Shown: positions 3,404 through 36,146 of the stretch, one piece after another
Position numbering within the stretch: position 1 is the stretch's first letter
Layout of the letters: each line of letters begins with the position of its first letter
Assembly: GCA_020697715.1 (NCBI GenBank)
Contig: JAEHCO010000003.1
Span: forward strand, 184,020 to 248,019
Direction of reading: 5' to 3'
Length of the DNA stretch: 64,000 nucleotides
Source of the DNA: Methanobacteriota archaeon
GTDB taxonomy: Archaea > Thermoplasmatota > Thermoplasmata > SG8-5 > JAGLSY01
Notes under the pieces: generated by a model
Databases searched by the model: none
Told to the model about the DNA's origin: nothing
What the model saw: the letters and a program-made list of their open reading frames with translations, nothing else
Program-made: the position numbers and the translations under genes

Positions 3404-3404
3404 T

Positions 3405-7850: not shown

Positions 7851-7910
7851 ATGAGTTCATTTACATTCACCATTCATTTCGACACCTCCAAAATTATGGA
7901 GGTGCAGTAG

Positions 7911-8357
7911 ATGACTGACAATAATGAGAACAATGAGAATTTCGAACCAAAGATAATCGCCTTCCTCTGCACCTGGTGTTCATATGCTGGTGCGGATCTG
8001 GCAGGCTCGGCAAGGATACAGTACCCGACCAATGTGAAGATAATCAAGGTCATGTGCTCGAGCAGGATCAACCCACTCTTCGTACTGAGAGCTTTCAGGA
8101 AGGGCGCGGACGGTGTGCTTGTTTCAGGATGCCATCCTGGTGATTGCCACTACTTGACTGGTAATTACTTCACTAGGCGTAGACTTATCTTATTCAAGAA
8201 ACAGCTGGAATGGGTTGGAATTGACCCTAATAGATTCCATATGAGCTGGGTGTCCGCATCCGAAGGCCAGGGCTGGGCCGATGTGGTGAATAAAGTTATT
8301 GACGATGTAAAGGAACTTGGTCCTCAGGACGAGATGCGAAGGAAGGTGGTTGAATGA
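7911..8357 (+). CDS. mvhD: MvhD/FlxD [2Fe-2S] subunit
   Basis: FLCTWCSYAGADLAG, MCSSR, GADGVLVSGCHPGDCHY; SD GGAGGTG. Confidence 0.93.
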   Translation: MTDNNENNENFEPKIIAFLCTWCSYAGADLAGSARIQYPTNVKIIKVMCSSRINPLFVLRAFRKGADGVLVSGCHPGDCHYLTGNYFTRRRLILFKKQLEWVGIDPNRFHMSWVSASEGQGWADVVNKVIDDVKELGPQDEMRRKVVE

Positions 8358-16615: not shown

Positions 16616-16671
16616 CTCTAATTCCTCCTCCTGATCTCGGAATTCAGAATGCAATCACTTTGTTCTCGCAT

Positions 16672-17499
16672 TCAGCTACCTCCCGATCTTGATGTGAATC
16701 TAATAGCAATGGCGATCATTGAGATCAAAGCCAGGATCGTCAAGAAACCTGGGGCGGGTAATAGCTTATCATGCTGCTCATATACATCTTCTTCTAGATC
16801 GTATATACCCAGATCCTCTAGCAGATCTTTAGGTGGCACACCCACCGATATAAAAGTGGAGCCCGTTGCTGTGCCTTCAGAATATTCTGCCTCTATTATG
16901 ACCTCATGAGTTCCCGCTGCAGGAGCGATCTCGAATATCACATATCGCATCTCTTCCTTCTGGATCGTGATGCTCTTCAGGGTCTGTAGTATCTCACCTC
17001 CTACTGTGAGGGATACATTGACATCTCTTGCATTTCCATTTCCTGTATTGTTGATATAAGCGTAAATGAACATCTTCTGCCCTTCATAGGCATCCTTGGC
17101 AGATCTGTTGACATTGGTTATGATAAGGTGAGCTATGCGAGGAGATGGTATGGATGTGGCATCTCCAGGGTTTGAAGCATTCTCTATCTCATTCCTGTTG
17201 GGATAACCATCACCATCCGAATCAAGGTGGCCGATGGCGCTGATCGCACCCGCGGCATCGGATATATGATTCGCATCGGCTTCGAAATCCACGCCATATG
17301 GATTGAGCCCTGCAAAATCTCCTGGTGGATGGCATACATCACAATCTCCCTTGAGATCGCCTTCGATATAAGACCCGTAAGAACTATAGCCAGATGAGAT
17401 AATACAGGTAACCAGTAGAAGAGTTATGAATACAGGGATAAGCAGGGCTATTTTGATCGATCTCGCCCTCCATTTTCTTTGTCCTTCCATGGTATTCAC
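16672..17499 (-). CDS. Surface monoheme cytochrome c with DxDGDG Ca-binding motif, CARDB/Ig-like domain and PGF-type C-terminal anchor
   Basis: Signal/TM, CDVCH..LNPYG, DSDGDGYPN, INNTGNGNA (CARDB-like), APGF + TM. Confidence 0.7.
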   Translation of the reverse strand: MNTMEGQRKWRARSIKIALLIPVFITLLLVTCIISSGYSSYGSYIEGDLKGDCDVCHPPGDFAGLNPYGVDFEADANHISDAAGAISAIGHLDSDGDGYPNRNEIENASNPGDATSIPSPRIAHLIITNVNRSAKDAYEGQKMFIYAYINNTGNGNARDVNVSLTVGGEILQTLKSITIQKEEMRYVIFEIAPAAGTHEVIIEAEYSEGTATGSTFISVGVPPKDLLEDLGIYDLEEDVYEQHDKLLPAPGFLTILALISMIAIAIRFTSRSGGS

Positions 17500-17584
17500 G
17501 CTCTTTTTTTCTCTCGATTTTATTTCCTGACTATATGATGTGATATTTATACATACTCTAAACGATAGTTAACTTTCAAAGTGC

Positions 17585-19123
17585 CTAATGCTGCCCCTTA
17601 CCAGCATGTTTCTTTTTGTATTCCTTCGCTCTCTCCTTAAAGGCCTTGTCTTCAGGCATGACCATTTTTACAGCAGCCATTGCACCCATCCCAAGGTCCA
17701 TGGCTATCTTCGGTATCGGTATTCCCTGCTTCGTGATCCCTTCAATGGATTTTCCAGGGTTCATTATGTCGTGAGGGTCCAGAACTGTTTTGATATCGAA
17801 CATGAGCTCAGCAGCCTCGCCTCTTATCTTTGGCAGATTGCCTGCAAAGAGTAATCCAAGTCCAAGAGGACGGCCACCATGCTCGAAGCCTATGTCTCCC
17901 AGCTTTTTTGGGAAAGCCAAGCTGGTGGTTCCCTTGATGAGCTTTTTATCATCAAATATGAAGTATGGTAGTAATGCCACAGTGTTCCTGTCGGTTACCA
18001 TTCCTATTACGGATGCCTCCATTCCCATATTGTCAACAAGCTCGTATATGTCCCTCAGCACATGGGGTAGCTTATTGAGCGGAACAACGATCTCACCAAG
18101 AGCGGCACTGAGACCAACCTCTCTTGGCCTGAACTCATATGCTCTCTCATTCCATTCATGCTCTGCTATGGAATCACTCATCTTTTTGCCTTCGAATTGG
18201 GCGCTGAGATTATCCAGAACATCTTCCTCCACTTTCACAGATTCTATAGTTCCTTCCAGTGCGACATTTATCAAAGCACCCTTCCCTGGTGTGTGCTTTC
18301 CCATCATATCGAGGAATTGAACATGGATCTCATCAACATAAGAAATATTCAATGGTCTGATCTTGCTCCTGGTAATAGCTCTGATAAATGGAAATGCCTT
18401 GGCCAGTGTGTCGAACTGGTATGATGTCGGCCTTAGGATCTCAGGGGCTGGTTCGGCCATCAAAGTGACCTTTGTTATAATTCCCAGGGTTCCTTCGCTT
18501 CCAACGAAAAGTCCGTTAAGGTTGTATCCCGCACTATGGTCGGAAACTCCACTGAAGCCAGTTTCTATTATTCTGCCATCTGGAAGAACTACTTCCATGC
18601 TCCTTATATTCTGACCAACGGATCCATATTTGTAACATCCGATCCCTATACCACCAGTATTGATCCATCCGCCCACAGTGGCGGCATACATACTTGAAGG
18701 GTAGGAAACTACGAACAATCCTCTTTTCAAGGCTATATCATAAACCTTTTTCCAAACTGCCCCGGCCTCGACAACGATCTCAAGATTATCCTGATCTACA
18801 TGGATAACCCTGTCCATGGATGAGATGTCGATCACGATCCCGCCTTGACTTGGTATCGCACCTCCAAAGCCCCATGTTGCTGCTCCTCGAGGGATCACAG
18901 GAATATCGTACTTGATGGCCACCTTGACTATCTGTGATACTTCCTCCGCACTTTTTGGCCTGATAACAGCATCGGGCATGGTATTGAATGCCAGACCGAC
19001 CTCTTTTGGCAATGGTGCCAGATCATGACTGTATAGTATCTTCTCGGTCTCCGTGATCTTAACCCTGTTTGGGCCAACTATCTTTACAAGGCTCTCGAAT
19101 ATCTCCACATTGTCCCTTGTCAT
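17585..19123 (-). CDS. FAD-linked 2-hydroxyacid oxidoreductase (GlcD / D-lactate dehydrogenase family)
   Basis: PDAVIRPKSAEEV, PRGAAT, ATVGG, GYNLNGLFVGSEGTLGIIT, DPHDIMNPGK. Confidence 0.85.
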   Translation of the reverse strand: MTRDNVEIFESLVKIVGPNRVKITETEKILYSHDLAPLPKEVGLAFNTMPDAVIRPKSAEEVSQIVKVAIKYDIPVIPRGAATWGFGGAIPSQGGIVIDISSMDRVIHVDQDNLEIVVEAGAVWKKVYDIALKRGLFVVSYPSSMYAATVGGWINTGGIGIGCYKYGSVGQNIRSMEVVLPDGRIIETGFSGVSDHSAGYNLNGLFVGSEGTLGIITKVTLMAEPAPEILRPTSYQFDTLAKAFPFIRAITRSKIRPLNISYVDEIHVQFLDMMGKHTPGKGALINVALEGTIESVKVEEDVLDNLSAQFEGKKMSDSIAEHEWNERAYEFRPREVGLSAALGEIVVPLNKLPHVLRDIYELVDNMGMEASVIGMVTDRNTVALLPYFIFDDKKLIKGTTSLAFPKKLGDIGFEHGGRPLGLGLLFAGNLPKIRGEAAELMFDIKTVLDPHDIMNPGKSIEGITKQGIPIPKIAMDLGMGAMAAVKMVMPEDKAFKERAKEYKKKHAGKGQH

Positions 19124-19893
19124 GCTACAACCTCATTTGTGATCTCATTATCCTGCTTTTGTTCCGCGGTTTCGATGGTCTCTTCGACCGCTTCAACTTT
19201 AACTACTTCTTCTATTTCGACTACTGGGTCCTGATAAAGACGGCCAGTCAATTCCCTGTACCATAGATAATGGTATTTTCTAACATACCATTCTGGTAGA
19301 GTTCCAGTGACAAAATATGCTCTGAACTTGACCATGTCTCTTTTTCTTAAGTGAAGGGAAGCCCTGTAGAAAACGAACCATATCAGGAATATTCCCATGA
19401 TGATATGGATCAGAAATCCGTATTCATGCAGGGATGCTATTTGCATTATTCCTGCCGTGATGCCCAAAACTCCGATCTTGAAAATGAAAGCGATGTAAGA
19501 AAGTCTTTGATGGCCCTGATATTTTCCATGGCTCCCCATCTCTTCTCTTGGAGCCAGGAACATCAGGAAAAGGAAGGTGTGAATGACACCCTTGATCTCT
19601 TTTGCTGGATTCTTGGGCAGGATCTCGACCTCTTTGCGTCCTATGTTCAATACAACATGCAGGGCACCGACACCCAGAAGGCCAATGGCAGAGTACATGT
19701 GAACATCTATCATCCATGAGAAGTGCGGGATCTCGTTAAATATCCCTCCATATATATCAAGCTCATGGAACACGAATTCCTTGAATAATATCCCTCCAGA
19801 AATGACCACGCCACCGAGGAGAATCAACACTAACCAATTGATGACGACCGCATCTTTTCCAAAGATCTTGATCTCCTTCTTTTTCTCTCTCAT
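19120..19893 (-). CDS. Cytochrome b-like membrane subunit
   Basis: Four TM helices with His (VHMY, LHV, IHII, LHL), GKYQGHQRL, TGTLPEWYVRKYH; directly downstream of a multiheme gene. Confidence 0.7.
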   Translation of the reverse strand: MREKKKEIKIFGKDAVVINWLVLILLGGVVISGGILFKEFVFHELDIYGGIFNEIPHFSWMIDVHMYSAIGLLGVGALHVVLNIGRKEVEILPKNPAKEIKGVIHTFLFLMFLAPREEMGSHGKYQGHQRLSYIAFIFKIGVLGITAGIMQIASLHEYGFLIHIIMGIFLIWFVFYRASLHLRKRDMVKFRAYFVTGTLPEWYVRKYHYLWYRELTGRLYQDPVVEIEEVVKVEAVEETIETAEQKQDNEITNEVVA

Positions 19894-19905
19894 ATTCTAC
19901 CTCTC

Positions 19906-21255
19906 TCATGGTCCGTGTATCTTGCCTAGTTCCTCAGGGCTATGGCAACCGCAACCATCTGTTTCATTGTCGTGGAATGATGGTACGGTATGACAGCCAT
20001 TGCATCTATCCCAATTCACAATTATACTACCATGTTCATTATGGCAATTTATGCATTCCTGGGATTTGTGATATGCCTCGCCCAGATGTTCGACCTGGTC
20101 TGAATGGCATTCTGAGCAGAATGAATTGGATATCATGAAGGATGTCTCCAATGTGATGGACAATGGGCTGTGAGCTCCTGTGGTGTGGCAGCTCAGGCAA
20201 TCATCATACGGAGCGCCAGTCATATGCTGGATATTGTCGCTGTTGTGACAATCATCACAATCTGGACTGTATTTATGATCTGTGTGACATTCTGGACATC
20301 CATCTTCCCATCCATGGGCGGAGTCAGAATTTGTTAATTTATCGTAGGTGTCTGAATGACAATCTGAGCAGAAGCTGGAATCGACCTTGAAAATACCATG
20401 TTCCTGAACTATCTCATAAGGAACACGAGCGTCCTCCGGGTGTAGTCTATCATGGCAGAACATACAATTATCCATGACCGTTCTGTGGCCTATGAACTCT
20501 GGCTGTGTGTGGCAATCTCCCATCCCACAGGTCCTATCCCTGTGGAGGTCTATCTCTTCCGAGCTCAGATCATGGCAGGTGGGGCATGCGAATCTTGTGA
20601 AACCAATACCATTCATTCTCTGATCGTGGCAGTCGACACATGTCTCCTGGGATTCCAACTCTGAGTAATCAGTTCCATTCTCTGTTAGAGGATGCCAGAT
20701 CATGCGGGTTGGCCAGGTGGTCGTACCATCTTCATCCGTGATATGGGATGAACCTCTGGGCACTGGAGCCTCTATTTTCCAATCCAGAACATCATGACAA
20801 CCCTTCAGGCAATTTTCAGCCGGAACGAATCCATGAAGATTGTCTGGATCATAATTGTCCAATATCAAATAGACAAGGTCTTTGGTCCCATCAATGGTAA
20901 CGGCCTCTACCTGGCCTATGATTCCTTCTCCTGTGTGACAATCAACACACAGTACCTCTTTATCCAGATGTGATATCATGATCGAATTGTTCTGGGGATT
21001 CAGGTAACTGTCATAATACGGGACCATTGGATGGCATGTGAGACCACAAAATTCTGGCTCTTTGTGGTAATCGATAAGTACCCAGGAGGCCAATATTATG
21101 GCTCCCAGAATTATCAAAAGAGAGAAAACATAAGCGATGCCCTTCAAGTTGATCTTATCACCTCGGAATCTTTTCAGCATGTACATTATTGCGAATGACC
21201 ATGCTCCAGTTATCACGAAGAACAGTATGAACCCGATCAAGACTTCCTTCAACAC
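19906..21255 (-). CDS. Multiheme cytochrome c with NapC/NrfH-like N-terminal domain (11 CxxCH + 4 non-canonical motifs)
   Basis: Two N-terminal TMs, PEFCGLTCHPM, SH..VLCVDCH, ENCLKGCH, followed by CVDCH, CPTCH, CGMGDCH, CMFCH, CSDCH, CPECH, CDDCH, CLSCH, CSECH, CINCH, CNGCH, CGCH. Confidence 0.9.
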   Translation of the reverse strand: MLKEVLIGFILFFVITGAWSFAIMYMLKRFRGDKINLKGIAYVFSLLIILGAIILASWVLIDYHKEPEFCGLTCHPMVPYYDSYLNPQNNSIMISHLDKEVLCVDCHTGEGIIGQVEAVTIDGTKDLVYLILDNYDPDNLHGFVPAENCLKGCHDVLDWKIEAPVPRGSSHITDEDGTTTWPTRMIWHPLTENGTDYSELESQETCVDCHDQRMNGIGFTRFACPTCHDLSSEEIDLHRDRTCGMGDCHTQPEFIGHRTVMDNCMFCHDRLHPEDARVPYEIVQEHGIFKVDSSFCSDCHSDTYDKLTNSDSAHGWEDGCPECHTDHKYSPDCDDCHNSDNIQHMTGAPYDDCLSCHTTGAHSPLSITLETSFMISNSFCSECHSDQVEHLGEAYHKSQECINCHNEHGSIIVNWDRCNGCHTVPSFHDNETDGCGCHSPEELGKIHGP

Positions 21256-25485: not shown

Positions 25486-26784
25486 ATGGGAAAGGATAAG
25501 AAACCCGAGATAAAGAAACCCAAATCACAGGTATCCGATCTGGTCAAGAACAAGGCACCTTATCTTGATGACCTGACCGCCTGCATGCAGTGTGGTTACT
25601 GTCAATCTGTTTGCCCGGTCTATGAAGAGGGTAAATGGGAGTCCCTTTCACCCAGAGGCAAATTATTCTTAATGAAGGATCTTACAAGCAAGAACAGCGC
25701 TCTCCAGAGAATACTTGGAAAGAAGCTCACTAACAAGATCACTGGCTCTGTTGAGATAGATCATGAAGAGTTCATGAATGCCATTTATAGATGCACACTC
25801 TGCAGCAGATGTGAAACAGTTTGTCATGTTGAGATCGAATTCCATGAGTACTGGGATCATCTGAGAGAATGGATGGTGAAGAATGGCATCAGGCCTCCGG
25901 AAAACACTGTCAACATGTACAAGGACATTGCCAATACTGATTTTAATAATCCCTTCAAGGAAACGAAGGACAAGAGGGACGAATGGTACAGGGATGATTA
26001 TCCAGAACTGCCAGCCACCGCGGAAGTGGTATATTATATTGGATGTATGACCTCCTTCTATGAATATCAGGTTCTACTGAACACCATGAAGATCTTCACG
26101 AAGGCTGGAGTGAATTTCACAACCCTCGGACAGGAAGAGGTTTGCTGCAGTGCGATAAACGTCATGACTGGCCAGACCGAGAACTTTGCCGATATTGCCA
26201 AGCGCAATGTCGATGCCATCAAGAAGAGAGGGGCAAAGAGAGTTGTGACCGGATGCCCAGGATGCTTCCGCGCCCTCAGAAAATATAAGAAATTCGTTGA
26301 TTATGATTTCGAGGTCATTCACACTATCGACCTGTTACACGAGGTCGTCACCCAGGGCAAATTGGAATGGAAGAAGGATTTCAAATCAAAACAATTGCCA
26401 GTCATATACCATGATCCATGCGAATTGGGTCGAATACTGGAGTTCGAGGACAAGCCCCGATATGATCAGCCAAGAGAGATATTATTGGCTGTTCCTGGAA
26501 TAGACGAGGTCCTGGAGTTCCCCACCAATAAGCTGGACAGTGCTTGCTGTGGTGGAGGTGGTGGATTGAAGGCCACTGACTATGACCTCAGTGCGCAGAT
26601 AGCCCTGAAAAAGGTGGAGGCCGCTATCGAGATCGGAGCCAAGACCATTGTGTCCACTTGCCCCAATTGTAAGAACCAGATCGGTGTCGCGGTGGAAATG
26701 AAGAAGGCCGAGCTGAAAAAGCAGGGTGAGAAGTTCAAGATGAACGTGATGGATGTTACTGACGTAGTTTCCAAATCCATTTGA
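25486..26784 (+). CDS. HdrD/GlcF-like Fe-S oxidoreductase (2x[4Fe-4S] + two CCG domains)
   Basis: CMQCGYCQSVCP..SPRGK, CTLCSRCETVC, YIGC..VCCS..GCPGC, YHDPCELGR..CCGGGGG..CPNC. Confidence 0.88.
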   Translation: MGKDKKPEIKKPKSQVSDLVKNKAPYLDDLTACMQCGYCQSVCPVYEEGKWESLSPRGKLFLMKDLTSKNSALQRILGKKLTNKITGSVEIDHEEFMNAIYRCTLCSRCETVCHVEIEFHEYWDHLREWMVKNGIRPPENTVNMYKDIANTDFNNPFKETKDKRDEWYRDDYPELPATAEVVYYIGCMTSFYEYQVLLNTMKIFTKAGVNFTTLGQEEVCCSAINVMTGQTENFADIAKRNVDAIKKRGAKRVVTGCPGCFRALRKYKKFVDYDFEVIHTIDLLHEVVTQGKLEWKKDFKSKQLPVIYHDPCELGRILEFEDKPRYDQPREILLAVPGIDEVLEFPTNKLDSACCGGGGGLKATDYDLSAQIALKKVEAAIEIGAKTIVSTCPNCKNQIGVAVEMKKAELKKQGEKFKMNVMDVTDVVSKSI

Positions 26785-26798
26785 TCGGTGGTCCGATA

Positions 26799-27794
26799 AT
26801 GGTGAAATTGTTCCGTCTTGGAGATATTTTTTGGGAAGATACTCAATTGATATACCATGCTCTGGCCAATCTCAATATCGAGGCATTGGTGCTTGATTCT
26901 CCCAAAGAGGAGTATGTTTGCCTTGGTTTTCATCAGAATCCAGATGATGAGTTGGATCTGGAGTATTGCGATCGGAACAATATAGGTGTGTTCCGGAGGG
27001 AGATCGGTGGTGGTTCGGTCTGGCTGGATAATCGCCAGGTGTTCTACAATATCATATTGAGAAAGGACAATCCCATTGTGCCAAGGCTGACACAGAACTA
27101 CTTCTCCAAATTCCTCAAGCCAGTTGTTTCCGTATGCAGGAACCTGGGCATGGAAGCTGAATTCAACCCCATCTGCGATATCTTGGCCAGTGGCAGGAAG
27201 TTCTCCGGGAACGGAGGTGGCGAGATAGGCGAGTGCAAGGTGATCGCTGGCGGCCTTCTTCTGGATTTTGAATTTGACAAAATGGCGAATATCATGAACC
27301 TCAATTCCTCAATGAAGGATCATTTCAGAGAGAGTATGGATAATAATCTGACAACGATACAGAATGAGATGGGCCAGACTCCTTCAAAAAATGAGATATT
27401 TGATGGTCTTATCAGAGAATTCGAGGATATTCTGGGCCCCTTCGAAATATCTTCCATCACCCCGGAGATCCGTGCGGAGATGGATCGCTTGAGATCCTAT
27501 TATTTTTCAGATAAATGGATGCACCAGAGAGGGGTGAACAACCTTGGCAGGGAGATCAAGGTCAGGGAAGGATATTACATCCTGGGTGTGGATGTGAACT
27601 TCAAGGGTGATGATCACCATCTTGCCATATTCTCGGAAGATGGCCAAGTCAGTGAACTGAAGATAACTGGCGATGGATCTACGGATAGAATTGAGGATCA
27701 AATTGAGCTAAAAAAGAGATTGTCCACTATTATCAAAATGGACTATGATCAAAGAAAAATAATAAATGCGATTAGTGACATGATATACCTGTAA
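26799..27794 (+). CDS. Lipoate-protein ligase / octanoyltransferase family protein
   Basis: LGFHQ, RREIGGGSVWLD, RKFSGNG; directly upstream of gcvH. Confidence 0.85.
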   Translation: MVKLFRLGDIFWEDTQLIYHALANLNIEALVLDSPKEEYVCLGFHQNPDDELDLEYCDRNNIGVFRREIGGGSVWLDNRQVFYNIILRKDNPIVPRLTQNYFSKFLKPVVSVCRNLGMEAEFNPICDILASGRKFSGNGGGEIGECKVIAGGLLLDFEFDKMANIMNLNSSMKDHFRESMDNNLTTIQNEMGQTPSKNEIFDGLIREFEDILGPFEISSITPEIRAEMDRLRSYYFSDKWMHQRGVNNLGREIKVREGYYILGVDVNFKGDDHHLAIFSEDGQVSELKITGDGSTDRIEDQIELKKRLSTIIKMDYDQRKIINAISDMIYL

Positions 27795-27815
27795 TGATAA
27801 CAGGGAGGCTGAAGT

Positions 27816-28247
27816 ATGCTGGTTATAAATGACATGAAATTCCCGCTTGACAGGAAATATTACACGAAGAATGGAGCCCATATGTGGCTCGCTGAAGACA
27901 ATGGCCAGATAAAGCTTGGTCTGGATGCCTTTGCCTCGGAGATGGCAGGCTTCCTCACATTCTTCGCTGTGACCTCGGAAGAGCCGAATGTGGGAGAGGC
28001 CATTGGCAGTTTTGAATCTGCCAAGTTCGTCAGCCGATTTTATTCCCCGATAAGTGGAAAGATCGTGGAGGTCAATAAAGCCGCGATGGCCAATCCCAAG
28101 TTGATCAATGACGATCCCTATTCCGCATGGATAGTGGCTATAGAACCACGCGATATTTCCGAATTGGATTCCGAGTTCATCATAGAGGGCGAGGAAAAGG
28201 TCAGCCAATGGATACATGAGGAATTAAGAAAGATGGAGGAGGAATGA
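27816..28247 (+). CDS. gcvH: GcvH-like lipoyl carrier protein
   Basis: HMW..LGLD, lipoyl-Lys motif SFESAKF, YSPISGKIVEVN, INDDPY. Confidence 0.9.
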   Translation: MLVINDMKFPLDRKYYTKNGAHMWLAEDNGQIKLGLDAFASEMAGFLTFFAVTSEEPNVGEAIGSFESAKFVSRFYSPISGKIVEVNKAAMANPKLINDDPYSAWIVAIEPRDISELDSEFIIEGEEKVSQWIHEELRKMEEE

Positions 28248-29287
28248 CCTTCATGGAAAGCCCTGGATATGTTAGGATAAGTACTGCAGCCGCCATGACA
28301 CTGAAGCTTGTTCCTGGCAAGTTCAATAGAGGCGAAAAGTTAGGATGCCTCAATCTCCTGATACATTATGATGAAGGATGCAGGGCGAATTGCAGTTACT
28401 GTGGTCTTTCCGGTACAAGAGATGCTGTGACCGATGACCCATCTTCCGATACATTTATCAGAGTGGACTGGCCACTTGTGGAAATTGATGATATAATCCG
28501 CAGGGCGAATGAACACGCACCTCATCTTCAAAGGGTGTGTGTTTCCATGATCACTCACAATAAATCCTTCGATGATATGATATCCATCATGAATAAGTTC
28601 AAGGAAGAGACCGATCTGAGCATAAGTGGCCTGATCGCTCCAACCATGATGATGGACATTGACAGTGCGTTCAAGATCAAGAAGGCGGGAGCTGACATGA
28701 TAGGTGTCGCGATAGACGCTGCCACCCCGGAACTATTTGACGAGATGAGAGGTAGCGGCGTGATGGGCCCACATAGTTGGGATCATTACTGGCAGGTGCT
28801 GGATTGGTGTGTGGATGTGTTCGGAAAGGGAATGGTAGGTATCCATATCATCGTGGGTCTTGGAGAGACGGAAGAGGAAATGATATCCGTCATCCAGAAG
28901 GCGCAGGATAAGGGAGCGAAGACCCATCTTTTCTCCTTCTTCCCGGAGGGTGGAAGCTCCATGAGCAAATGGCTCCAACCTTCATATGGCAGGTACAGGA
29001 GGGTTCAATTGGCCAGATACATAATCAATGAAGAGATATCCGATATGGGCCAGATGAAATTCGATAGTGAGGGTCAATTAATAGATTTTGGTATAAATAT
29101 CAATCCAATTGTGAATGAGGGAATTGCATTCATGACCTCCGGATGTGCTGGAAGTGATGGCATGGTGGCTTGCAATCGCCCGTATGGAAATGAAAGGCCT
29201 TCCAATCCTATTCGAAATTATGCCTTCATACCTGAGGAAAGGGACGTCAAGCAAATATGGTCGCAGATATTCGATTACACAGAATGA
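28244..29287 (+). CDS. lipS2: Radical SAM lipoyl synthase component LipS2
   Basis: CRANCSYC; C-terminal TSGC...CNRP matching the TxGCxxC(N/D)RP-type LipS2 motif; lipoate gene context. Confidence 0.75.
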   Translation: MTFMESPGYVRISTAAAMTLKLVPGKFNRGEKLGCLNLLIHYDEGCRANCSYCGLSGTRDAVTDDPSSDTFIRVDWPLVEIDDIIRRANEHAPHLQRVCVSMITHNKSFDDMISIMNKFKEETDLSISGLIAPTMMMDIDSAFKIKKAGADMIGVAIDAATPELFDEMRGSGVMGPHSWDHYWQVLDWCVDVFGKGMVGIHIIVGLGETEEEMISVIQKAQDKGAKTHLFSFFPEGGSSMSKWLQPSYGRYRRVQLARYIINEEISDMGQMKFDSEGQLIDFGININPIVNEGIAFMTSGCAGSDGMVACNRPYGNERPSNPIRNYAFIPEERDVKQIWSQIFDYTE

Positions 29288-29321
29288 TGGATAGATCCAG
29301 TCAATATTTTAAAGGGATAAA

Positions 29322-30875
29322 ATGAAAAAACTCACCTTACTGGACACCGGCATGATGACCGCGGCCCAGAATATCGCACTTGATGAAATCCTTCTGCAAT
29401 TAAGAAATGAGGATAAGATACCCGATACACTGCGGCTTCTTCAGTTCAAGCCGCATTCTGTGCTTGTCGGATACCACCAGAGCATTGAGCAGGAAGTGAG
29501 GATCGAATTTTGTCAGCAGAATGGCATCGATATAAATCGCCGGATAACTGGTGGCGGGACCATATACCTGGACGAGCCTCAGATCGGATGGGAATTGATC
29601 GCATCCAGATGGGACCCGGACATTCCGAAAGATATTGACAAATTATATGCCAAGGTCTCCGAGGGCGCTGTCCAGGGTTTGAAGAACCTGGGCGTGGAAG
29701 CCGAATTCCGACCTCGGAATGATATCGAGGTCGATGGAAAGAAGATATCTGGCACTGGTGGTTCTTTTGAAGCCAATGCTTTCTTTTTCCAAGGCACTCT
29801 TTTAACGGATTTCGATGTCGAGACCATGATCCGGGCTTTGATGATACCCCTGGAGAAACTGAAGGCCAAGGAACTGGAATCCGCAAAAGAAAGAGTAACT
29901 TGCCTGAAGTGGGAGCTGGACGAACTTCCATCGATCCAGGCCATCAAGGAAGCCATTGTCAAGGGTTTTGCCGATGTCTTCGATGTGGAGATCGAAGAGA
30001 GGGAACTAACACCATTGGAGCTTCAGATATTGGAGGAAAGAACATCGAAATTCGAAAAACCGGATTGGATATACGGCATAAGGAGGCCAGTGGAGTCCCG
30101 CCAAGTTATTCGATCCATATACAAAGCACCTGGTGGCCTGATACGCTCCAGCTTGATCGTGGACATTCCGAACAAGAGGATCCAGGCGGCTCTCATAACA
30201 GGTGATTTCTTCATATTCCCTAATCGTACGGTTCTGGACTTGGAAGCGTCCTTGAAGGACGCCTCTATGGAGCCGGGCAAACTCACGGCTATAATTCGTG
30301 AGTTCTTCAACTCTCGCGAAATAGAAATGCCAGGCATCCTGCCGGATGACTTTGTAAAGGCGATTCTCAAAGCAGTTCAGAAGCTGGAATACCTGGACAT
30401 TGGTATTCCATTGGAGCATATCAATAAAGTATTCAGGGTGTGCGATCCTCCAATGAGCCTGAAGGATTGCAAGACCATTCTTCTCCCTTACTGCGCGAAA
30501 TTACAAAAATGCGGATACAGAAGATTGAATGATTGTGCGGAATGTGGCGAGTGCGATATCGGGGATGCGTACACTTTGGCGAAGCAACTCGGGATGGAGC
30601 CCATAACGATAATCAGTTTCGAGGATCTGATGGAGAATTTAAACAGATTAAAAGTCGAGGGAGCCAGCATGTTCCTCGGTAGCTGTTGCGAGGCCTTTTA
30701 TGAAAAGCATCTGGAGGATTTCGAGGAAGCCGGGCTACCGGGTTTCCTGATCGACATCGACAGCACCACCTGCTACGACCTGGGAAGGGAGCAGGATGCG
30801 TACGTGGGAGACTTCGAGAATGAGACCGAGCTGAGGCTGGAGCTCATCAAAATGGTGCTGAAGAAGATGAGCTGA
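29322..30875 (+). CDS. lplA: Lipoate-protein ligase (LplA catalytic + accessory domain) fused to a Cys-rich DUF116-like domain
   Basis: RRITGGGTIYLD, KKISGTG, KAPGGLI..ITGDFF; C-terminal LPYCAK..C..CAECGEC..GSCC..TTC. Confidence 0.85.
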   Translation: MKKLTLLDTGMMTAAQNIALDEILLQLRNEDKIPDTLRLLQFKPHSVLVGYHQSIEQEVRIEFCQQNGIDINRRITGGGTIYLDEPQIGWELIASRWDPDIPKDIDKLYAKVSEGAVQGLKNLGVEAEFRPRNDIEVDGKKISGTGGSFEANAFFFQGTLLTDFDVETMIRALMIPLEKLKAKELESAKERVTCLKWELDELPSIQAIKEAIVKGFADVFDVEIEERELTPLELQILEERTSKFEKPDWIYGIRRPVESRQVIRSIYKAPGGLIRSSLIVDIPNKRIQAALITGDFFIFPNRTVLDLEASLKDASMEPGKLTAIIREFFNSREIEMPGILPDDFVKAILKAVQKLEYLDIGIPLEHINKVFRVCDPPMSLKDCKTILLPYCAKLQKCGYRRLNDCAECGECDIGDAYTLAKQLGMEPITIISFEDLMENLNRLKVEGASMFLGSCCEAFYEKHLEDFEEAGLPGFLIDIDSTTCYDLGREQDAYVGDFENETELRLELIKMVLKKMS

Positions 30876-30916
30876 AGCTGGAACTCATAAAGATGGTACT
30901 GAAGAAGATGGTCTAA
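30828..30916 (+). repeat. 41-bp-period diverged tandem duplication of the lplA 3' end
   Basis: gagctgaggctggagctcatcaaaatggtgctgaagaagat followed by gagctgaagctggaactcataaagatggtactgaagaagatg. Confidence 0.9.
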
Positions 30917-31953
30917 CTTCTACTGGCCAGAAACTTCAATCTCTTGACATATTTATCCGCTTTTTCCGGGCTAGCCAGATTCTCCTCGATAAAACCAACA
31001 TCTCTCAGGCCAAGCAGACCAGCGGCTTCGAGTTTTTCATCATAAGCCTTTGCAAGATCGATATCATTATTTCCCATGTGCTCGAAGGTGATCTCCGCGG
31101 CTATCTGGCCGGATCTCATAGCATAATAAATTCCCTCGCCAGTTCCAGGATAGACAAAGCCGCCAGCATCCCCCGTTAGCAGTATTCTTCCTGATGACAA
31201 TGTGCTGAGTGGGCCGGACATGGGTATGGAATGCGCTTCTTTTCTCAATAGCGTTCCTTCATCTATCTTGGGAGCGACAAGCGGATTGTTAATGAACAGC
31301 TCGATCATTCCCCAGATATCTGGCTTTCTATCGGAGAGAATGCCGATACCGACCTTGACGCCGCCTTTCATGGGGCTGATCCAGCCGTATCCGTATTCCA
31401 TGAGATAATACACTTCGAACCAGTTGCCGATCCTGTCATCGACCATGTCCTCATCCAGGCTGAATTCGTACTGGGCGGATATCGCGATCTTATCTATCTG
31501 GGTGTCGCAGACCCTTCTGGCCACGGATGCAGTTCCTTCTGCTCCGATAACATACTTTGCTTCGACATCTCCGCTTCTGCCTTTGAGCAAATAGTGATCA
31601 TCCATATCCTCGATCTCAAAGATATGGTTCTTGACAACGGAATTTTTCAGATCCTTGATCAGGAATTCATCGAACTTATCTCTTTGAACGATACATCCAG
31701 GCTCTGGAAATGATGATTCAACGACATCCTTGGATGGTCCGAAGACCCTGTATCCTTTCAGCGGTCTTTCGATGATATCTTCCGGGATGTCCAAAAGTGA
31801 ATGGATCTTGGGAGAAAGCACACCGGCGCATGGCTTGTTCCTGGGGAATTCCGACCTGTCTAGTATGATGTAATTCGCTCCGAGCTCTTCGAGCTTCCTC
31901 GCGGCCATCGCACCAGCGGGCCCCGAGCCCACGATCGCATAATCATGTATCAT
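30913..31953 (-). CDS. Geranylgeranyl-reductase-family FAD oxidoreductase (LipT candidate)
   Basis: IVGSGPAG, FPRNKPCAG, GYGWISP, GDAGGFVYPGTGEGIYYA; located inside the lipoate cluster; ATG 31953 preferred. Confidence 0.8.
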   Translation of the reverse strand: MIHDYAIVGSGPAGAMAARKLEELGANYIILDRSEFPRNKPCAGVLSPKIHSLLDIPEDIIERPLKGYRVFGPSKDVVESSFPEPGCIVQRDKFDEFLIKDLKNSVVKNHIFEIEDMDDHYLLKGRSGDVEAKYVIGAEGTASVARRVCDTQIDKIAISAQYEFSLDEDMVDDRIGNWFEVYYLMEYGYGWISPMKGGVKVGIGILSDRKPDIWGMIELFINNPLVAPKIDEGTLLRKEAHSIPMSGPLSTLSSGRILLTGDAGGFVYPGTGEGIYYAMRSGQIAAEITFEHMGNNDIDLAKAYDEKLEAAGLLGLRDVGFIEENLASPEKADKYVKRLKFLASRS

Positions 31954-32055
31954 CGATATACTTGAGAGGAATATTGGATATAAATTTTGGGTATGGTATA
32001 TTGGCAAAATGGGGAAAAACTTTAAACAATATCCAGTCATCCGCGGAATGTTACA

Positions 32056-33033
32056 ATGCACAGCAATGATACAGATAATATCAAGACCCTGCGAAATAGG
32101 GACTTGCCCTGGCTTCTTGAGAAAGCCTGGACCCTGCGAACTGCAGAATTCCCGAATGAGCTGTTAATCTCATCACCTGGGGCCAAGACATACATCACTG
32201 ATCATCACAGGAATGAGAAGAATACTTTTGTCAATGTCAGTGTGACTGGCACCGACTGCGCTCTCAGCTGCGAGCATTGCAATAAGACACTTCTCGAGAC
32301 CATGGAATCCGTCAGGAGCCCGGATGAACTGATCGCTCTGGGAGATGACCTTGCATCGAAAGGCTGCGAGGGATTATTGTTGAGCGGAGGAGCTGACATA
32401 CATGGCGAGGTCCCCATTCTCCAATATGGGGATGCGATAAAATATCTGAAAAACCTGGGATTGAAGATCCTCGTGCATTCCGGCCTGGCAACGAAAGAAA
32501 CAGCCCGGATGTTGAAGGAATCCGGGGTGGATCAGGTCCTGCTGGACGTCATAGGTTCGGAGTCCACTCTTAGGGAAGTATATCATCTGGATAAGACACC
32601 GGATGATGTTTACAATTCTCTGAAAGCCCTGGTGGACGAAGGTCTGAATGTGGTACCTCATATCCTTGTGGGACTTCATTATGGAAGGATCGATGGGGAA
32701 TTCAATGCCCTCGAGATGATAATGAGAGCTGGTGTCAAACACATTGTGATAATTGTGCTCATGCCCAAGAGAGGCACGCCCATGGAGAACTCGCCAACAC
32801 CTACACCCCTGGAGGTTGGCAAGATCATCGCTGTTGGGCGCATACTGAATCCCAAAGCGAAGATAACTTTGGGATGTGCCAGGCCCGCTGGTGATGACAA
32901 GCTGATGATGGAAAAATACGCCATTCAAGGCGGGGTGAATGGCATCGCTTATGCGACGGATGAAGCAATGGATATAGCGGAAGAGCTGAATTTAACTCTG
33001 AAATTCAGCGATACTTGCTGCTCTTTGTTGTAG
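32056..33033 (+). CDS. lipS1: Radical SAM lipoyl synthase component LipS1
   Basis: SVTGTDCALSCEHC, LGCARP (GC(M/A)R motif), C-terminal CC. Confidence 0.75.
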   Translation: MHSNDTDNIKTLRNRDLPWLLEKAWTLRTAEFPNELLISSPGAKTYITDHHRNEKNTFVNVSVTGTDCALSCEHCNKTLLETMESVRSPDELIALGDDLASKGCEGLLLSGGADIHGEVPILQYGDAIKYLKNLGLKILVHSGLATKETARMLKESGVDQVLLDVIGSESTLREVYHLDKTPDDVYNSLKALVDEGLNVVPHILVGLHYGRIDGEFNALEMIMRAGVKHIVIIVLMPKRGTPMENSPTPTPLEVGKIIAVGRILNPKAKITLGCARPAGDDKLMMEKYAIQGGVNGIAYATDEAMDIAEELNLTLKFSDTCCSLL

Positions 33034-33106: not shown

Positions 33107-35686
33107 GTGGAAGAGATTAGAAAGTTCGTATCTATCTGGCTATGCTTTGTTATGGTGGCAGGGTCTGCTATTGTTATGGTTGATAATCAAGATATTGTGG
33201 ATGCTGGAAATGTATCTTATAACACTTTAAAACTCAACCCTCCACCGATCGATCAGTTGGCTTTTAACGAGATAAAAAAATTAGTGGCTAGTGATGGCGT
33301 AGCATCGGACTATTTTGGTTATTCAATATCTCTATCTGGTGATACAGTGATTGTAGGTGCACGCAATCATGATGTTGGTGGAAATGAAAAACAAGGCTCT
33401 GCTTATATTTTTGAGCAAAATGAAGGCGGAGAATACAACTGGGGTGAGGTCACCAAGCTTGTTGCATCTGACGGAGCATCAGGTGACGAATTTGGTCGCT
33501 CAGTCTCTATACATGGCGACACGGTGGTTGTTAGTGCATTTATTGATGATATAGACGGAAATACAGATCAAGGTTCTGCTTATATTTTTGAAAGAAATGC
33601 TGGCGGAGTTAATAACTGGGGCGAGGTCACCAAGCTCACTGCATCTGATGGAGCACCTGATGACATTTTTGGTCTTTCAGTCTCTCTATCTAATGACATA
33701 TTGGCTGTAGGTGCACCTTATGCTGTCATCAGTGGAAATATTATGCAGGGCTCTGCATATATTTTTGAGCGAAATATGGGCGGTGCTGATAACTGGGGCG
33801 AGGTCACCAAACTCATTTCATCAGATGGCGTAGCAGGCGATTATTTTGGCTATTCTGTTTCCATGTTCAATGATACTTTAGCTGTTGGCGCAATCCATGC
33901 TGAGGTCGGTGGGAATGCTGATCAAGGCTCTGTATATGTTTTCGAGCGAAATATGGGCGGTGCTGATAACTGGGGTGAGGTCACCAAGATTGTTGCATCC
34001 GATGGAGGAAACGGTGACTCTTTTGGCTATTCAATTTCCATATTCAATGATATTTTGGCTGTAGGTGCAGAACGTGCTGATGCATTCCGGGGCTCTGCTT
34101 ATATATTCGACCGAAATACAGGAGGGGCCGATAACTGGGGGCAGGTGTCTAAGCTCACAGCATCCGATGGAGCGGCGAGCGATTATTTTGGCGAATCAAT
34201 TTGCATATCCAATGACACGTTGATTGTAGGTGCTTATGCTGCCGATATCGGTGTAAATATCCGGCAGGGTGCCGCGTATCTTTTTGAGCGTAATGCTGGT
34301 GGTGCCGACAACTGGGGGCAGGTTAATAAGCTCATAGCATCCGATGGAGCGGCGAGCGATTACTTTGGTCGTTCAGTTTGCATATCTGATGAAACACTAG
34401 TTGTGAGTGCATATTCTGATGATTTTAAACAAGGCTCTGCATACATTTTTTCTTTGCATATTGAGCCAATGATATCACTTCTATCTCCTGCAAATAACTC
34501 AGTTATAACTTCTGGGACAATAATAGATATTGAAGTAACGGGCTCTCACTTTATCAATGTGAATTATTCAGTGAATGGAGGGCTAAACACAACCCTCCCT
34601 GCACCATATGACATTGACACCACTCTCTGGGCTGATGGGTCATATATGATCGAGGTTCATGCAAATAACACTCCTGACAATAATATTTCAAGCTCTTACA
34701 ATTTCATTATTGATTCATCAGCACCAGAGATCATCCATCAACATATTATTTCTACTCCCACCATCCAGTCTGTAAATATAACAGCCAATATAACAGACAT
34801 TGTTGGAGTTAATGAGGTCTATCTCAATTACACCGACACCAATGGAATGAATCACAATGCCTCAATGAACCAATGGGGAGGAAATTGGTCTTATGATATC
34901 CCTGCTCAGAACAGCCTCGGATTTGTAGATTATTTCATCTGGTGTGATGATCTTTTCGACTATGCGAATCAAACGCCTATTTACCACATCCAAATAATCG
35001 AACCATTCTCCATAGCGGACATCGAGCCAGATTCAATCGCATTACCGATCTATCCAAACTGGAATCTCATCTCAATACCGAGAGAACCACTGGACAAAGG
35101 CAGTGATGGTAAATTCACTGCCTTCGATTTGCTTCGTGAGATTCAGGAAGACCTCGGCGTCTTTTCTTTCAGCGTGGCCAGGCATAATGGTGGAATCCCC
35201 AGTTCTTATACCGTCTTCGATTCTGGAACTATGGAAGGGGCCTTCAATGACTTCGAGATAACCAATACAGATGCCTACTGGCTATACGCGCCAGCGGTCT
35301 ATGGAATGGTGAATATCGAAAGCCAGGACATAGCCAACTGGGGAATTGATAATGTCAAGGTACTGGATGCTGGCTGGAATATGCTGGGATTCCCACATAA
35401 CAATTCAGTGGGTGGCGCACAGCCAGGTGGGTGGAACACGCAGCTGAGAGCGCACCATTTCACAGATGGCACGATCGATCCCGATCTCGTTGTTGGAGTT
35501 GTGGATCAAGATATGATAATCGCCACGCGCTGGATACCGACAACTCACCAGTATGAGAGCTATCTTGTGAATACTACATTTTCAGGAATTGCCAGCAAGG
35601 ATTGGTATTACGATTCTTATTATTCAATAGGGTACTGGCTATGGGTTGAGAATAGTGTTGAAGTTACCTTCGATACAGAATTCTAA
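33107..35686 (+). CDS. Secreted FG-GAP (integrin-alpha-like) seven-bladed propeller protein with Ig-like and WNL-type C-terminal domains
   Basis: Signal peptide; seven K(L/I)xxSDGxxxDxFGxS repeats; PNWNLISIP and AGWNMLGFP motifs. Confidence 0.85.
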   Translation: MEEIRKFVSIWLCFVMVAGSAIVMVDNQDIVDAGNVSYNTLKLNPPPIDQLAFNEIKKLVASDGVASDYFGYSISLSGDTVIVGARNHDVGGNEKQGSAYIFEQNEGGEYNWGEVTKLVASDGASGDEFGRSVSIHGDTVVVSAFIDDIDGNTDQGSAYIFERNAGGVNNWGEVTKLTASDGAPDDIFGLSVSLSNDILAVGAPYAVISGNIMQGSAYIFERNMGGADNWGEVTKLISSDGVAGDYFGYSVSMFNDTLAVGAIHAEVGGNADQGSVYVFERNMGGADNWGEVTKIVASDGGNGDSFGYSISIFNDILAVGAERADAFRGSAYIFDRNTGGADNWGQVSKLTASDGAASDYFGESICISNDTLIVGAYAADIGVNIRQGAAYLFERNAGGADNWGQVNKLIASDGAASDYFGRSVCISDETLVVSAYSDDFKQGSAYIFSLHIEPMISLLSPANNSVITSGTIIDIEVTGSHFINVNYSVNGGLNTTLPAPYDIDTTLWADGSYMIEVHANNTPDNNISSSYNFIIDSSAPEIIHQHIISTPTIQSVNITANITDIVGVNEVYLNYTDTNGMNHNASMNQWGGNWSYDIPAQNSLGFVDYFIWCDDLFDYANQTPIYHIQIIEPFSIADIEPDSIALPIYPNWNLISIPREPLDKGSDGKFTAFDLLREIQEDLGVFSFSVARHNGGIPSSYTVFDSGTMEGAFNDFEITNTDAYWLYAPAVYGMVNIESQDIANWGIDNVKVLDAGWNMLGFPHNNSVGGAQPGGWNTQLRAHHFTDGTIDPDLVVGVVDQDMIIATRWIPTTHQYESYLVNTTFSGIASKDWYYDSYYSIGYWLWVENSVEVTFDTEF
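33275..34450 (+). repeat. Seven in-frame ~165-180-bp FG-GAP coding repeats
   Basis: Recurrent aactggggcgaggtcaccaag and ggctctgcttatatttt units. Confidence 0.85.
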
Positions 35687-35702: not shown

Positions 35703-36146
35703 TCAATCCTTTATCTTCAACTGGAATTCTAGTGGGAAATTGACCGCATTCGTGACAGTGCAATGTGCTCGGGCCAGATCGAACACTTTCTCGATCTTTT
35801 CCTTGTCCGCACCATCTGTCCAAACCGATAATTTCATGCTTCCGGCAACCACACGTTCCTGGCCTTCGACAAAATCTGTTTCAGTTTTCACATCCACCGA
35901 TATGTCGCTGACATGAATCCTGGATTTGTGGGCTGAATAAAGGAATGTGGTCATCAAGCACGACCCCATTGCGGAGGAGAATATCTCCAATGGCGCGGGA
36001 GCTGTGTTCGTACCAAAAAGGCCTTTAGGTTTGTCGCATGCGATCTCCATGCCTCTTATCAGGGAAGTTGTCTTCAGACCGCCTTCCCACATTACCTTTG
36101 CTCTTGCCTCGCTCTTTGCTTCTCCAGACATCCAATTCAGCTCCAC
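35703..36146 (-). CDS. OsmC/Ohr-family protein
   Basis: DKP..FGTNTAPAPLE...GSC, HCTV catalytic Cys pair. Confidence 0.85.
   Translation of the reverse strand: MELNWMSGEAKSEARAKVMWEGGLKTTSLIRGMEIACDKPKGLFGTNTAPAPLEIFSSAMGSCLMTTFLYSAHKSRIHVSDISVDVKTETDFVEGQERVVAGSMKLSVWTDGADKEKIEKVFDLARAHCTVTNAVNFPLEFQLKIKD

Follow-up and report, generated by a model that had tools for sequence, protein, structure and literature searches.

A lipoate-assembly gene cluster headed by an HdrD-like gene in a Thermoplasmata archaeon, and GcvH-like proteins as candidate lipoyl carriers for Hdr-type enzymes

The window, a stretch of 64,000 nucleotides from the genome of a Thermoplasmata archaeon (GenBank assembly GCA_020697715.1, contig JAEHCO010000003.1, positions 184,020 to 248,019), contains a seven-gene cluster (window positions 25486-33033) in which genes for lipoate assembly and for a GcvH-like carrier protein follow a gene for an HdrD-like iron-sulfur protein. 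On balance, the cluster appears to build lipoate on H-type carriers that do not serve glycine cleavage and that are joined to a disulfide reductase of the CCG type. The hdrCBA-mvhD-flxCBA genes, a gene for a GlcD-fold flavoprotein and a second carrier gene (gcvH_b), all found elsewhere in the window, probably belong to the same system. The favored interpretation, held with moderate confidence and drawn from the linkage of these genes, is that the CCG sites of HdrB and of the HdrD-like protein use the lipoyl arm as their dithiol/disulfide substrate. The original prediction, made from the letters of the window, had put forward lipoyl-GcvH as a carrier for Hdr; the idea gains ground here, and what speaks for it is genetic linkage.

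The lipoate-assembly cluster and its surplus carriers

Gene identities in the window were established from the list of open reading frames (ORFs) and from Pfam and NCBIfam searches, and each of the seven genes named in the original prediction is present. The first five, all on the forward strand, are hdrD-like (25486-26784; 432 amino acids, with Pfam Fer4_8 and two CCG domains, 108.8 bits); lig1, encoding a divergent LplA-family ligase (26781-27794; LplA-B_cat at 111.9 bits, and TIGR00545 at 105.4, below its cut-off of 280); gcvH_a, encoding the GcvH-like carrier (27816-28247; Pfam GCV_H at 84.2 bits); lipS2, for a radical-SAM lipoyl synthase subunit (28244-29287; NF053743 at 226.5 bits, below 270); and lig2 (29322-30875), whose product combines LplA, LplB-like and DUF116 parts (LplA-B_cat 168.8, LplB-like 59.2 and DUF116 36.9 bits). 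Since these genes share one strand and are spaced by 4-base overlaps or by gaps of at most 34 bases, they are read as a single operon. It is followed by a divergent pair consisting of a lipT candidate on the reverse strand (30913-32061), which encodes a geranylgeranyl-reductase-family FAD protein (TIGR02032 at 188.5 bits, above 158.8), and lipS1 on the forward strand (32056-33033), encoding the other radical-SAM lipoyl synthase subunit (NF053742 at 232.9 bits, above 230).

The lig1 ORF and the end of hdrD-like share 4 bases; for lig1, an ATG six codons further downstream is the likelier true start. The 5′ end of lipS2 likewise overlaps the gcvH_a stop by 4 bases, and the lipT candidate likely starts at a methionine at 31953. 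Although LipS2 falls below the threshold of NF053743, that model is its best match and covers its full length, so the assignment is partly borne out; the radical-SAM CxxxCxxC motif is visible in the translations of both LipS1 and LipS2. The model libraries used contain no model specific for LipT, which was therefore recognized as a geranylgeranyl-reductase-family FAD protein encoded together with lipS1/lipS2 and a ligase, and the candidate is just such a protein. In relatives, its orthologues (45-53% identity) adjoin lipS1 or gcvH_b, and the adjacency to lipS1 is kept at loci L020 and L023 and in genomes G002 and G029.

The closest relatives of Lig1 in the PDB are two-domain lipoate-protein ligases. 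In Lig2, residues about 376-517 form a cysteine-rich C-terminal DUF116 domain. This fusion is kept in all seven full-length orthologues, six of them at 53-57% identity and including one from a Desulfosarcina metagenome-assembled genome (MAG), the seventh being the near-identical protein of L020. The domain may bind a metal or an Fe-S cluster.

The second carrier gene, gcvH_b, is found where the original prediction had placed it, at 51938-52369 on the forward strand (in an ORF open from 51908), and its product scores 121 bits with GCV_H. GcvH_a is below both curated GcvH cut-offs (PRK01202, 78.2 against 117; TIGR00527, 68.3 against 115.85); GcvH_b exceeds the first (125.2) and is below the second (106.2). 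The lipoyl-lysine motif in the hairpin is ESAK in GcvH_a (ESAKF), SSGK in GcvH_b (SSGKWTGK) and ESVK in a third, canonical copy on contig C29. The lipoyl lysine of GcvH_a, K70, is present in every one of the 30 aligned members of its subfamily, which is restricted to Thermoplasmata and comprises 88 proteins of at least 38% identity, 85 of them at least 47%.

In a tree of 43 GcvH-like proteins, GcvH_a falls in a nine-member clade (support 100/99) that sits on a long stem (1.11) among carriers encoded beside Hdr genes. GcvH_b belongs to a different clade of nine (support 97/93), the other members of which adjoin GlcD-like and HdrD-like genes. Most Hdr-linked carriers in the tree have Lys-Trp at the lipoylation site, as GcvH_b does, and in these KW-type carriers both residues are invariant (22 of 22 aligned proteins). 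Searched against 1.84 billion proteins, a profile of the KW type finds 191 cluster representatives at E ≤ 1e-30; its best 150 matches include 135 single-domain proteins, with KW at the site in 69 and KA in 28. Nine KW-type carriers score 111-150 bits on the NCBIfam GcvH subfamily model (cut-off 117) and match no separate model; they are therefore annotated as ordinary GcvH.

Neither carrier has the pair of N- and C-terminal cysteines typical of LbpA: GcvH_a has no cysteine at all, and the one cysteine of GcvH_b lies in a doubtful N-terminal extension. Both are acidic, with whole-protein isoelectric points (pI) of 4.6 and 4.4, and no chain named LbpA is among the PDB relatives of GcvH_b. Other variants of the fold were also seen. 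GcvH-like paralogues without the lipoyl lysine are encoded beside GlcD-like/HdrD-like enzymes at L052, L055 and L076, and the 445-residue protein P0290 combines a response-regulator receiver, a GCV_H domain and a 4Fe-4S dicluster domain. Directly downstream of gcvH_b, at 52668-54761 on the reverse strand, are genes for a second geranylgeranyl reductase (GGR_cat) and a polyprenyl synthetase, which are probably lipid genes; this reductase is only 24% identical to the lipT candidate.

The genome (2.12 Mb, 93.8% complete) was searched across all contigs. As the original prediction stated, the window has no gcvP, gcvT, lipoamide dehydrogenase or E2 gene. Elsewhere, gcvPA and gcvPB are on contig C32, gcvT and the only lipoamide dehydrogenase above the cut-off (487.8 bits) are on C11, and the canonical gcvH (GCV_H at 148.5 bits, motif ESVKS) is on C29. 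The carriers in the window could have been explained by a full glycine cleavage system elsewhere; such a system exists, but it has an H protein of its own, and both window carriers are therefore surplus to it. Neither gcvH_a nor gcvH_b is near gcvP, gcvT or the lipoamide dehydrogenase gene. GcvH-family proteins are the only lipoyl acceptors found. No E2 (PF00198) was detected in the genome; nor was LipA, for which the best match reaches 27 bits only.

A second lipoylation set is present as well. Contig C22 carries lipS2′ (318.6 bits, above 270), lplA′ and lplB′ (70 bits, above 65), and C32 carries lipS1′ (193.6 bits) about 2 kb from gcvP. The lipoylation proteins of the window are only 32-37% identical to this set, compared with 50-51% (LipS2), 46-47% (Lig2) and 37-38% (LipS1) to those of the Desulfosarcina MAG locus L028 and the archaeal locus L055, where the lipoylation genes adjoin GlcD-HdrD-GcvH genes. 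A similar arrangement is seen in relatives: in G059, G029 and G002 a further gcvH match lies about 55 bases or less from gcvP, apart from the extra carriers. Among five relatives with the module, gcvP was found in four and E2 in none; the fifth, G053 (91% complete), has the module and no detected gcvP.

Hdr-type enzymes and their linkage to the carriers

The HdrD-like protein has two ferredoxin-type [4Fe-4S] motifs and two complete CCG domains, matching the pattern by which HdrD is recognized (two CxxCxxCxxxC(P) motifs and two domains of the form C-X31-41-CC-X35-36-CxxC). An alignment of 23 sequences shows invariant cysteines in both ferredoxin motifs (C33/36/39/43 and C103/106/109/113) and in the CCG domains (C220/221, C257/260, C312, C354/355 and C392/395), with C187 conserved in at least 90%. 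The protein thus keeps every cysteine needed for two cubane and two noncubane clusters. Its best NCBIfam matches are all below cut-off: TfrB (158.7), LdhH (121.5), GlpC (100), TmcB (88.7), GlcF (82.8), HmcF (70.3) and DsrK (67.6). Among PDB entries, 9ojn matches at 180 bits, and the HdrB structures (59-69 bits) are the nearest named relatives.

No hydrophobic segment was found in the HdrD-like protein. The immediate neighbors of its gene are ccmF and lig1, with no HdrE-like or other membrane gene adjoining. Because there is no HdrE-type partner alongside and no mcrA in the genome, the name "HdrD-like" is used. The role that the original prediction gave to this protein is thereby revised in part: it is a CCG enzyme, as expected, but no membrane gene adjoins its own, and the partner conserved beside it is a GlcD-fold flavoprotein.

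This partnership emerged from 80 loci of many phyla, which were fetched via an alignment of HdrD-like relatives, with one genome per species. Since the loci were selected by their HdrD-like gene, all synteny counts refer to that gene. In 53 of them a GlcD-like gene is no more than 300 bp from the HdrD-like gene, and five protein clusters (44-54% identity) are GlcD-like::HdrD-like fusions. The GlcD-fold FAD protein encoded in the window (17585-19123, reverse strand; FAD_binding_4 and FAD-oxidase_C), within an operon of cytochrome genes, is thus the likely partner of the HdrD-like protein. Three further proteins (P0209, P0366 and P0367), 76-87% identical and from a single Anaerolineae lineage, carry three GCV_H domains fused to GlcD-like and HdrD-like parts.

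Among solved structures, those most closely related to the window flavoprotein are D-lactate dehydrogenases and LctD, and a function as lactate or glycolate dehydrogenase was considered and rejected. HxGDGNxH and EHGxG are the metal and catalytic motifs of VAO-fold 2-hydroxyacid dehydrogenases. Aligned with mouse LDHD (8jdb), the window protein shows GMVTDRNTV where HxGDGNxH would be expected, with both histidines gone, and EHGxG falls in a gap. With these hydroxyacid-site motifs lost, the flavoprotein is probably not a lactate or glycolate dehydrogenase. Among 81 GlcD-like ORFs scanned (78 from other loci and three from this genome), both motifs are absent from all Thermoplasmata partners of HdrD-like proteins, and 8 of the 78 from other loci retain both.

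Carrier genes recur at the same loci. A GcvH-like gene is present in 22 of the 80, within 3 kb of the HdrD-like gene in 16; the expected frequency is about 2% per 15-kb locus, a rough estimate from three gcvH genes in 2.1 Mb. HdrA, HdrB or MvhD genes occur in 20 of the loci, a ligase gene in nine, and LipS1 or LipS2 in six. KW-type GcvH-like genes occur at more distant HdrD-like loci of other archaea and of bacteria.

Within Thermoplasmata, HdrD-like orthologues of at least 49% identity occur in 10 of 201 genomes. All ten also have a lig1 orthologue (at least 39% identity), and nine have a gcvH_a orthologue (at least 39% identity and 123 bits), which is found in none of the other 391 of the 401 genomes searched (a total that includes G301, counted as one genome without an orthologue). 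LipS2 of the window type (at least 48% identity) is found in 13 of the 201 genomes of the class, all of them with such modules. The co-occurrence of hdr, hdrD-like and lipS1/S2-gcvH genes that the original prediction had looked to is therefore strong, both in Thermoplasmata and in the wider loci, and the lack of such linkage, which together with glycine cleavage elsewhere would have told against it, is not what is seen.

The order of the genes ties them together further. G139 has hdrD-lig1-gcvH_a-lipS2-lig2, as in the window, while in G002, G039 and G059 the order is lig1, gcvH_a, lipS2, lig2, hdrC, hdrB, hdrA on one strand, with a gap of 3.8 kb after lig1 in G039. G002 and G059 also have lipT-gcvH_b-glcD-hdrD. 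In G053 and G153, which belong to the same taxonomic order as the window genome and whose HdrA has 1466-1702 residues, the order is glcD-hdrD-lig1-hdrC-hdrB-hdrA, flanked by gcvH_b and, in G153, also by lipS2-lipS1.

In the window itself, hdrC, hdrB, hdrA, mvhD, flxC, flxB and flxA (Pfam) occupy 1880-11360 on the forward strand, with an HdrA of 1491 residues that contains a GltD-type insertion. HdrC is 50-52% identical to the module copies of relatives and 33% to a second copy in its own genome; for HdrB the values are 40% and 32%. That second copy is part of another hdrC-hdrB ... hdrA-mvhD-flxCBA cluster (C30:15037-28388). The genome also has two more pairs of GlcD-like and HdrD-like genes (C11:876562-879139 and C33:9091-11618). 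No gcvH is near the C30 cluster or either of these pairs.

Between the hdr-flx genes and gcvH_b lie ccm genes, genes for two multihaem cytochromes and a cytochrome b, and the gene for the GlcD-fold flavoprotein. The reverse-strand operon at 14699-21255 begins with an 11-haem cytochrome, u257 and the flavoprotein and continues with a CARDB-domain protein, an 8-haem cytochrome and a cytochrome b561-type protein; ccmABC follow. It may represent an extracellular electron-transfer route in a Thermoplasmata archaeon. The product of u257 is cytochrome-b-like and histidine-rich, with four transmembrane segments and a weak similarity (30 bits) to the cytochrome b of the window; Pfam searches at E up to 5 return nothing for it. 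Together with the upstream 11-haem cytochrome gene, the u257 gene covers 19120-21255 (reverse strand), and it overlaps the start of the GlcD-like gene by 4 bases. A u257-multihaem cytochrome pair also adjoins GlcD-like/HdrD-like genes in G002 and G029, which represent one other genus.

Electron flow and competing explanations

Family membership and the published pathway suggest how the carriers would be made. Lig2, Lig1 or both would attach octanoate or lipoate to Lys70 of GcvH_a and to the conserved lysine of GcvH_b, and LipS1 and LipS2 would then insert two sulfur atoms with LipT as the reductant. The lipoyl arm would carry two electrons between the noncubane Fe-S sites of HdrB, acting within an NAD(P)H- and ferredoxin-linked Flx-Hdr complex, and of the HdrD-like protein, working with its FAD partner. 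The carrier would thus take the place held by DsrC or CoM-S-S-CoB in other organisms. The original prediction had pointed to MAGs lacking dsrC and mcr as the place to look for the module, and it is present in them: DsrC and McrA were found neither in the whole-genome search here nor in any of 11 other module-bearing genomes. That no alternative disulfide carrier was found among these two supports the lipoyl-carrier interpretation.

The direction of electron flow is less clear. It was originally proposed that Flx-Hdr reduces the carrier and that the HdrD-like protein re-oxidizes it towards quinone and cytochromes, which now seems doubtful. The midpoint potential of free lipoamide is about -290 mV, and NADH-driven bifurcation by Flx-Hdr onto lipoamide would for this reason be unfavorable. 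The flow may be reversed, or the protein may shift the potential. Two routes look feasible: the dihydrolipoyl form could be oxidized along with reduced ferredoxin to yield NAD(P)H, or the HdrD-like protein and its flavoprotein could oxidize it towards cytochromes. A cytochrome outlet is suggested by the flavoprotein gene sharing an operon with cytochrome genes, here and in G002 and G029.

Besides these energetics, several observations weigh against the lipoyl arm as an Hdr substrate. Most of the HdrD-like loci (58 of 80) show no GcvH-like gene in the available flanking DNA. The GlcD-like gene of the window is 6 kb from hdrD-like and on the opposite strand. In the three triple-fusion proteins, the GCV_H domains have no lipoyl lysine, so these fusions demonstrate a physical association of the fold and not lipoyl transfer. 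The co-occurrence in Thermoplasmata spans only about four related lineages (genera g1, g7, g10 and g24), and the counts therefore overstate independence. Finally, the window-type set may act on the ordinary H protein as well in other lineages. Both types of lipS2 are present only in the archaeon's own genus (four of four genomes), and in searches with two lipS2 queries the window type was the only one found in the rest of the order. A "dedicated" lipoylation set is thus a description that holds at most for this genus; the idea of a dedicated accessory set throughout the class was rejected, the C22/C32 type being the rarer one in the order.

Among the competing explanations, peroxide defense survives best, though it is improbable as the principal function. 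On this account, the extra carriers mainly feed an OsmC-type hydroperoxidase, and the Hdr-type enzymes serve to keep the carriers reduced. The window does carry an OsmC-like peroxidase gene (35703-36146, reverse strand; Pfam OsmC, 58 bits), a neighbor that the original prediction left out of account, whose product has three cysteines, two of them at the spacing expected of an OsmC catalytic pair. ORFs of the OsmC type were seen at 10 of the 92 module loci, from at least seven genomes of several phyla; apart from the window, these include G059, G029, the Desulfosarcina locus L028, the Bathyarchaeia locus L036, the archaeal locus L055 and the Scotarchaeum locus L076. A GcvH-like protein has also been proposed as the electron donor of OsmC in Hyphomicrobium in the preprint of Kuempel et al. 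(2026). However, the other 82 module loci show no OsmC in the available DNA, the conserved core of hdrCBA with GlcD-like/HdrD-like genes suggests bulk electron flow, and the lipoamide dehydrogenase of the genome could reduce the carriers alone. The two ideas are compatible, in that peroxide reduction via OsmC may be one outlet of the same carrier.

It is also unlikely that the cluster is a housekeeping set that makes lipoate for glycine cleavage, with gcvH_a encoding a spare H protein and hdrD-like being either a chance neighbor or a gene whose product reduces or repairs the radical-SAM enzymes. The route usual in archaea combines LipS1/S2 with LplA/LplB, and lipS2-lplA-lplB-lipS1 clusters are described as typical (Tanabe 2023, PMC10332631). 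The restriction of lipoyl acceptors to the GcvH family and the prevalence of the window-type lipS2 in the order are likewise what this explanation would expect. On the other hand, a canonical gcvH and a typical lipS2-lplA-lplB/lipS1 set, whose lipS1 is close to gcvP, exist separately in this genome, and GcvH_a fails the GcvH cut-offs. A chance neighborhood does not agree with the common phyletic pattern of hdrD-like, lig1 and gcvH_a, nor with the hdrCBA genes that directly follow the module genes in relatives. Since LipS genes are found at only 6 of the 80 HdrD-like loci, the HdrD-like protein is not a general helper of LipS.

Somewhat less credible is a lipoyl relay, in which GcvH_a is an assembly platform and Lig1 an amidotransferase that passes lipoate to GcvH_b or to the canonical H protein. 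In the relay of Bacillus subtilis, GcvH and LipL pass lipoate on. The arrangement of the genes would suit such a scheme, with a gcvH_a orthologue directly between lig1 and lipS2 in eight of nine loci (allowing for the lig1 gap in G039; the exception is L021, with hdrC in the place of lipS2), and so would the long stem of the GcvH_a clade and the divergence of Lig1 within the LplA family. Yet lig1-like genes occur without gcvH_a, beside KW-type carriers only, in G053, G153, G029 and L036, the closest PDB matches of Lig1 are genuine ligases, and a relay leaves the linkage to hdrD-like and hdrCBA unexplained. For GcvH_b, a relay is compatible with a carrier role in the Hdr system.

A sulfur-oxidizing sHdr-LbpA system can be dismissed as highly improbable on gene content: whereas sHdrA is short, the HdrA here belongs to the large GltD type and precedes MvhD and FlxCBA, the carriers are acidic (pI 4.4-4.6) without the N- and C-terminal cysteine pair, and the window has no TusA gene, two copies of which are on other contigs (DsrE was not searched for). 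The similarity lies in the gene set, since lipoate-binding proteins with sLpl(AB)-LipS1/S2-LipT beside hdr-like genes define the sHdr system (Cao 2018, PMC6067878; Tanabe 2023, PMC10332631).

Two other genes of the window may be mentioned. A gene for an FG-GAP-repeat protein of 859 residues (Pfam) follows the lipoate-assembly cluster at 33107-35686 on the forward strand, and an ORF of 2590 residues occupies 43995-51767 on the reverse strand.

Significance and comparison with known systems

Genes of the HdrABC and HdrD-like kinds are found in many non-methanogenic anaerobes, frequently at high expression levels, and there the substrate of Hdr is routinely described as an unidentified heterodisulfide (Nat Commun 2024, PMC11291895). 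Protein-bound lipoate is a testable candidate for the disulfide used by Hdr-type enzymes outside methanogens and sulfate reducers. Because the carrier is encoded with its own ligases, synthase and Hdr enzymes, the substrate question becomes assayable with defined recombinant parts. The system would extend the non-classical role of lipoate beyond sulfur oxidizers, and it flags a carrier subfamily that annotation pipelines label as ordinary GcvH. A broader proposal, offered tentatively, is that, in anaerobes without CoM-S-S-CoB or DsrC (among them Thermoplasmata, Bathyarchaeia, Asgard-related archaea, Nitrososphaerota, Desulfobacterota and Chloroflexota), KW-type and related GcvH-like proteins are a general dithiol/disulfide substrate for HdrABC-type and HdrD-like/flavoprotein enzymes, here coupling Flx-Hdr to a cytochrome-b/multihaem outlet. 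If true, this would amount to a lipoate-based respiratory thiol cycle.

The full-text literature searched, supplementary tables lying outside the search, yielded no description of the HdrD-like/GlcD-like pair together with a KW-type carrier, hdrCBA and lipoylation genes. Nor, apart from the sHdr papers and Kohtz 2022, did it yield a GcvH associated with HdrD, GlcD or a CCG domain, although the supplements of Tanabe 2023 and Cao 2018 may list such cases.

A close counterpart in gene content is the sHdr-LbpA system, whose hosts are sulfur oxidizers such as Hyphomicrobium denitrificans, Thioalkalivibrio and Aquifex (PMC6067878, PMC10332631). There, the association of LbpA with Hdr-like complexes and its maturation by LipS1/S2 and LipT have been established (Cao 2018; Tanabe 2023). 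Both systems encode GcvH-like carriers with Hdr-type CCG enzymes, a ligase, LipS1, LipS2 and a geranylgeranyl-reductase-like LipT, and an extra lpl-like gene is reported in some shdr clusters (Kuempel 2026 preprint). The analogy that the original prediction drew with LbpA thus stands for the maturation genes; the carriers have no typical LbpA cysteine pair. It is stated in the same preprint that sLpl(AB) recognizes basic surface regions of LbpA; the carriers here are acidic as whole proteins. The window has neither sHdr-type subunits nor sulfurtransferase genes, its HdrA is of the large GltD type with MvhD and FlxCBA, and the partners of the carriers are a GlcD-fold flavoprotein and an HdrD-like protein. 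In addition, the hosts of the module are anaerobic archaea and bacteria not known as sulfur oxidizers.

DsrC offers a functional parallel. Its dithiol/disulfide has been put forward as the common partner of several HdrB/HdrD-like enzymes, Flx-Hdr and a GlcD plus HdrD-like pair among them (PMC6470260). The CCG partners of DsrC compared here were DsrMKJOP, TmcABCD, HmcABCDEF, FlxABCD-HdrABC and the Fe-S lactate dehydrogenase DVU3027/3028. The architecture of a multihaem cytochrome, a cytochrome b and a cytoplasmic CCG protein recurs in the window. Unlike that system, however, this genome has no detected DsrC, the carrier would be a lipoyl-lysine arm instead of a cysteine pair, and the flavoprotein lacks the hydroxyacid-site residues. 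With the HdrABC-MvhAGD and HdrDE enzymes of methanogens, the window proteins share complete Fe-S/CCG motifs in HdrD and HdrB, the latter providing the nearest named solved relatives; in contrast to methanogens, mcrA was not found and no HdrE-like gene stands beside hdrD-like.

The lipoylation genes resemble those of the Thermococcus kodakarensis type (LplAB with LipS1/LipS2), with the same families and the same clustering. It is the C22/C32 set that matches this type, whereas the window set has, in addition, an embedded carrier, a second ligase, the DUF116 fusion, LipT and hdrD-like. The OsmC-like gene that recurs beside the carriers, though in a minority of loci, is a link to the Ohr/OsmC lipoyl-dependent peroxidases.

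The same idea, that GcvH holds a disulfide for Hdr, was put forward for the Culexarchaeia by Kohtz et al. (2022, PMC9723716), who describe an Ehe/HdrA2B2C2-GcvH cluster in which GcvH could hold the disulfide for HdrB/HdrA2B2C2 in a non-methanogen. The context described in that paper is a membrane [NiFe]-hydrogenase with SdhA and CdhA. To that account, the present analysis adds lipoylation genes, the HdrD-like/GlcD-like pair and a carrier subfamily.

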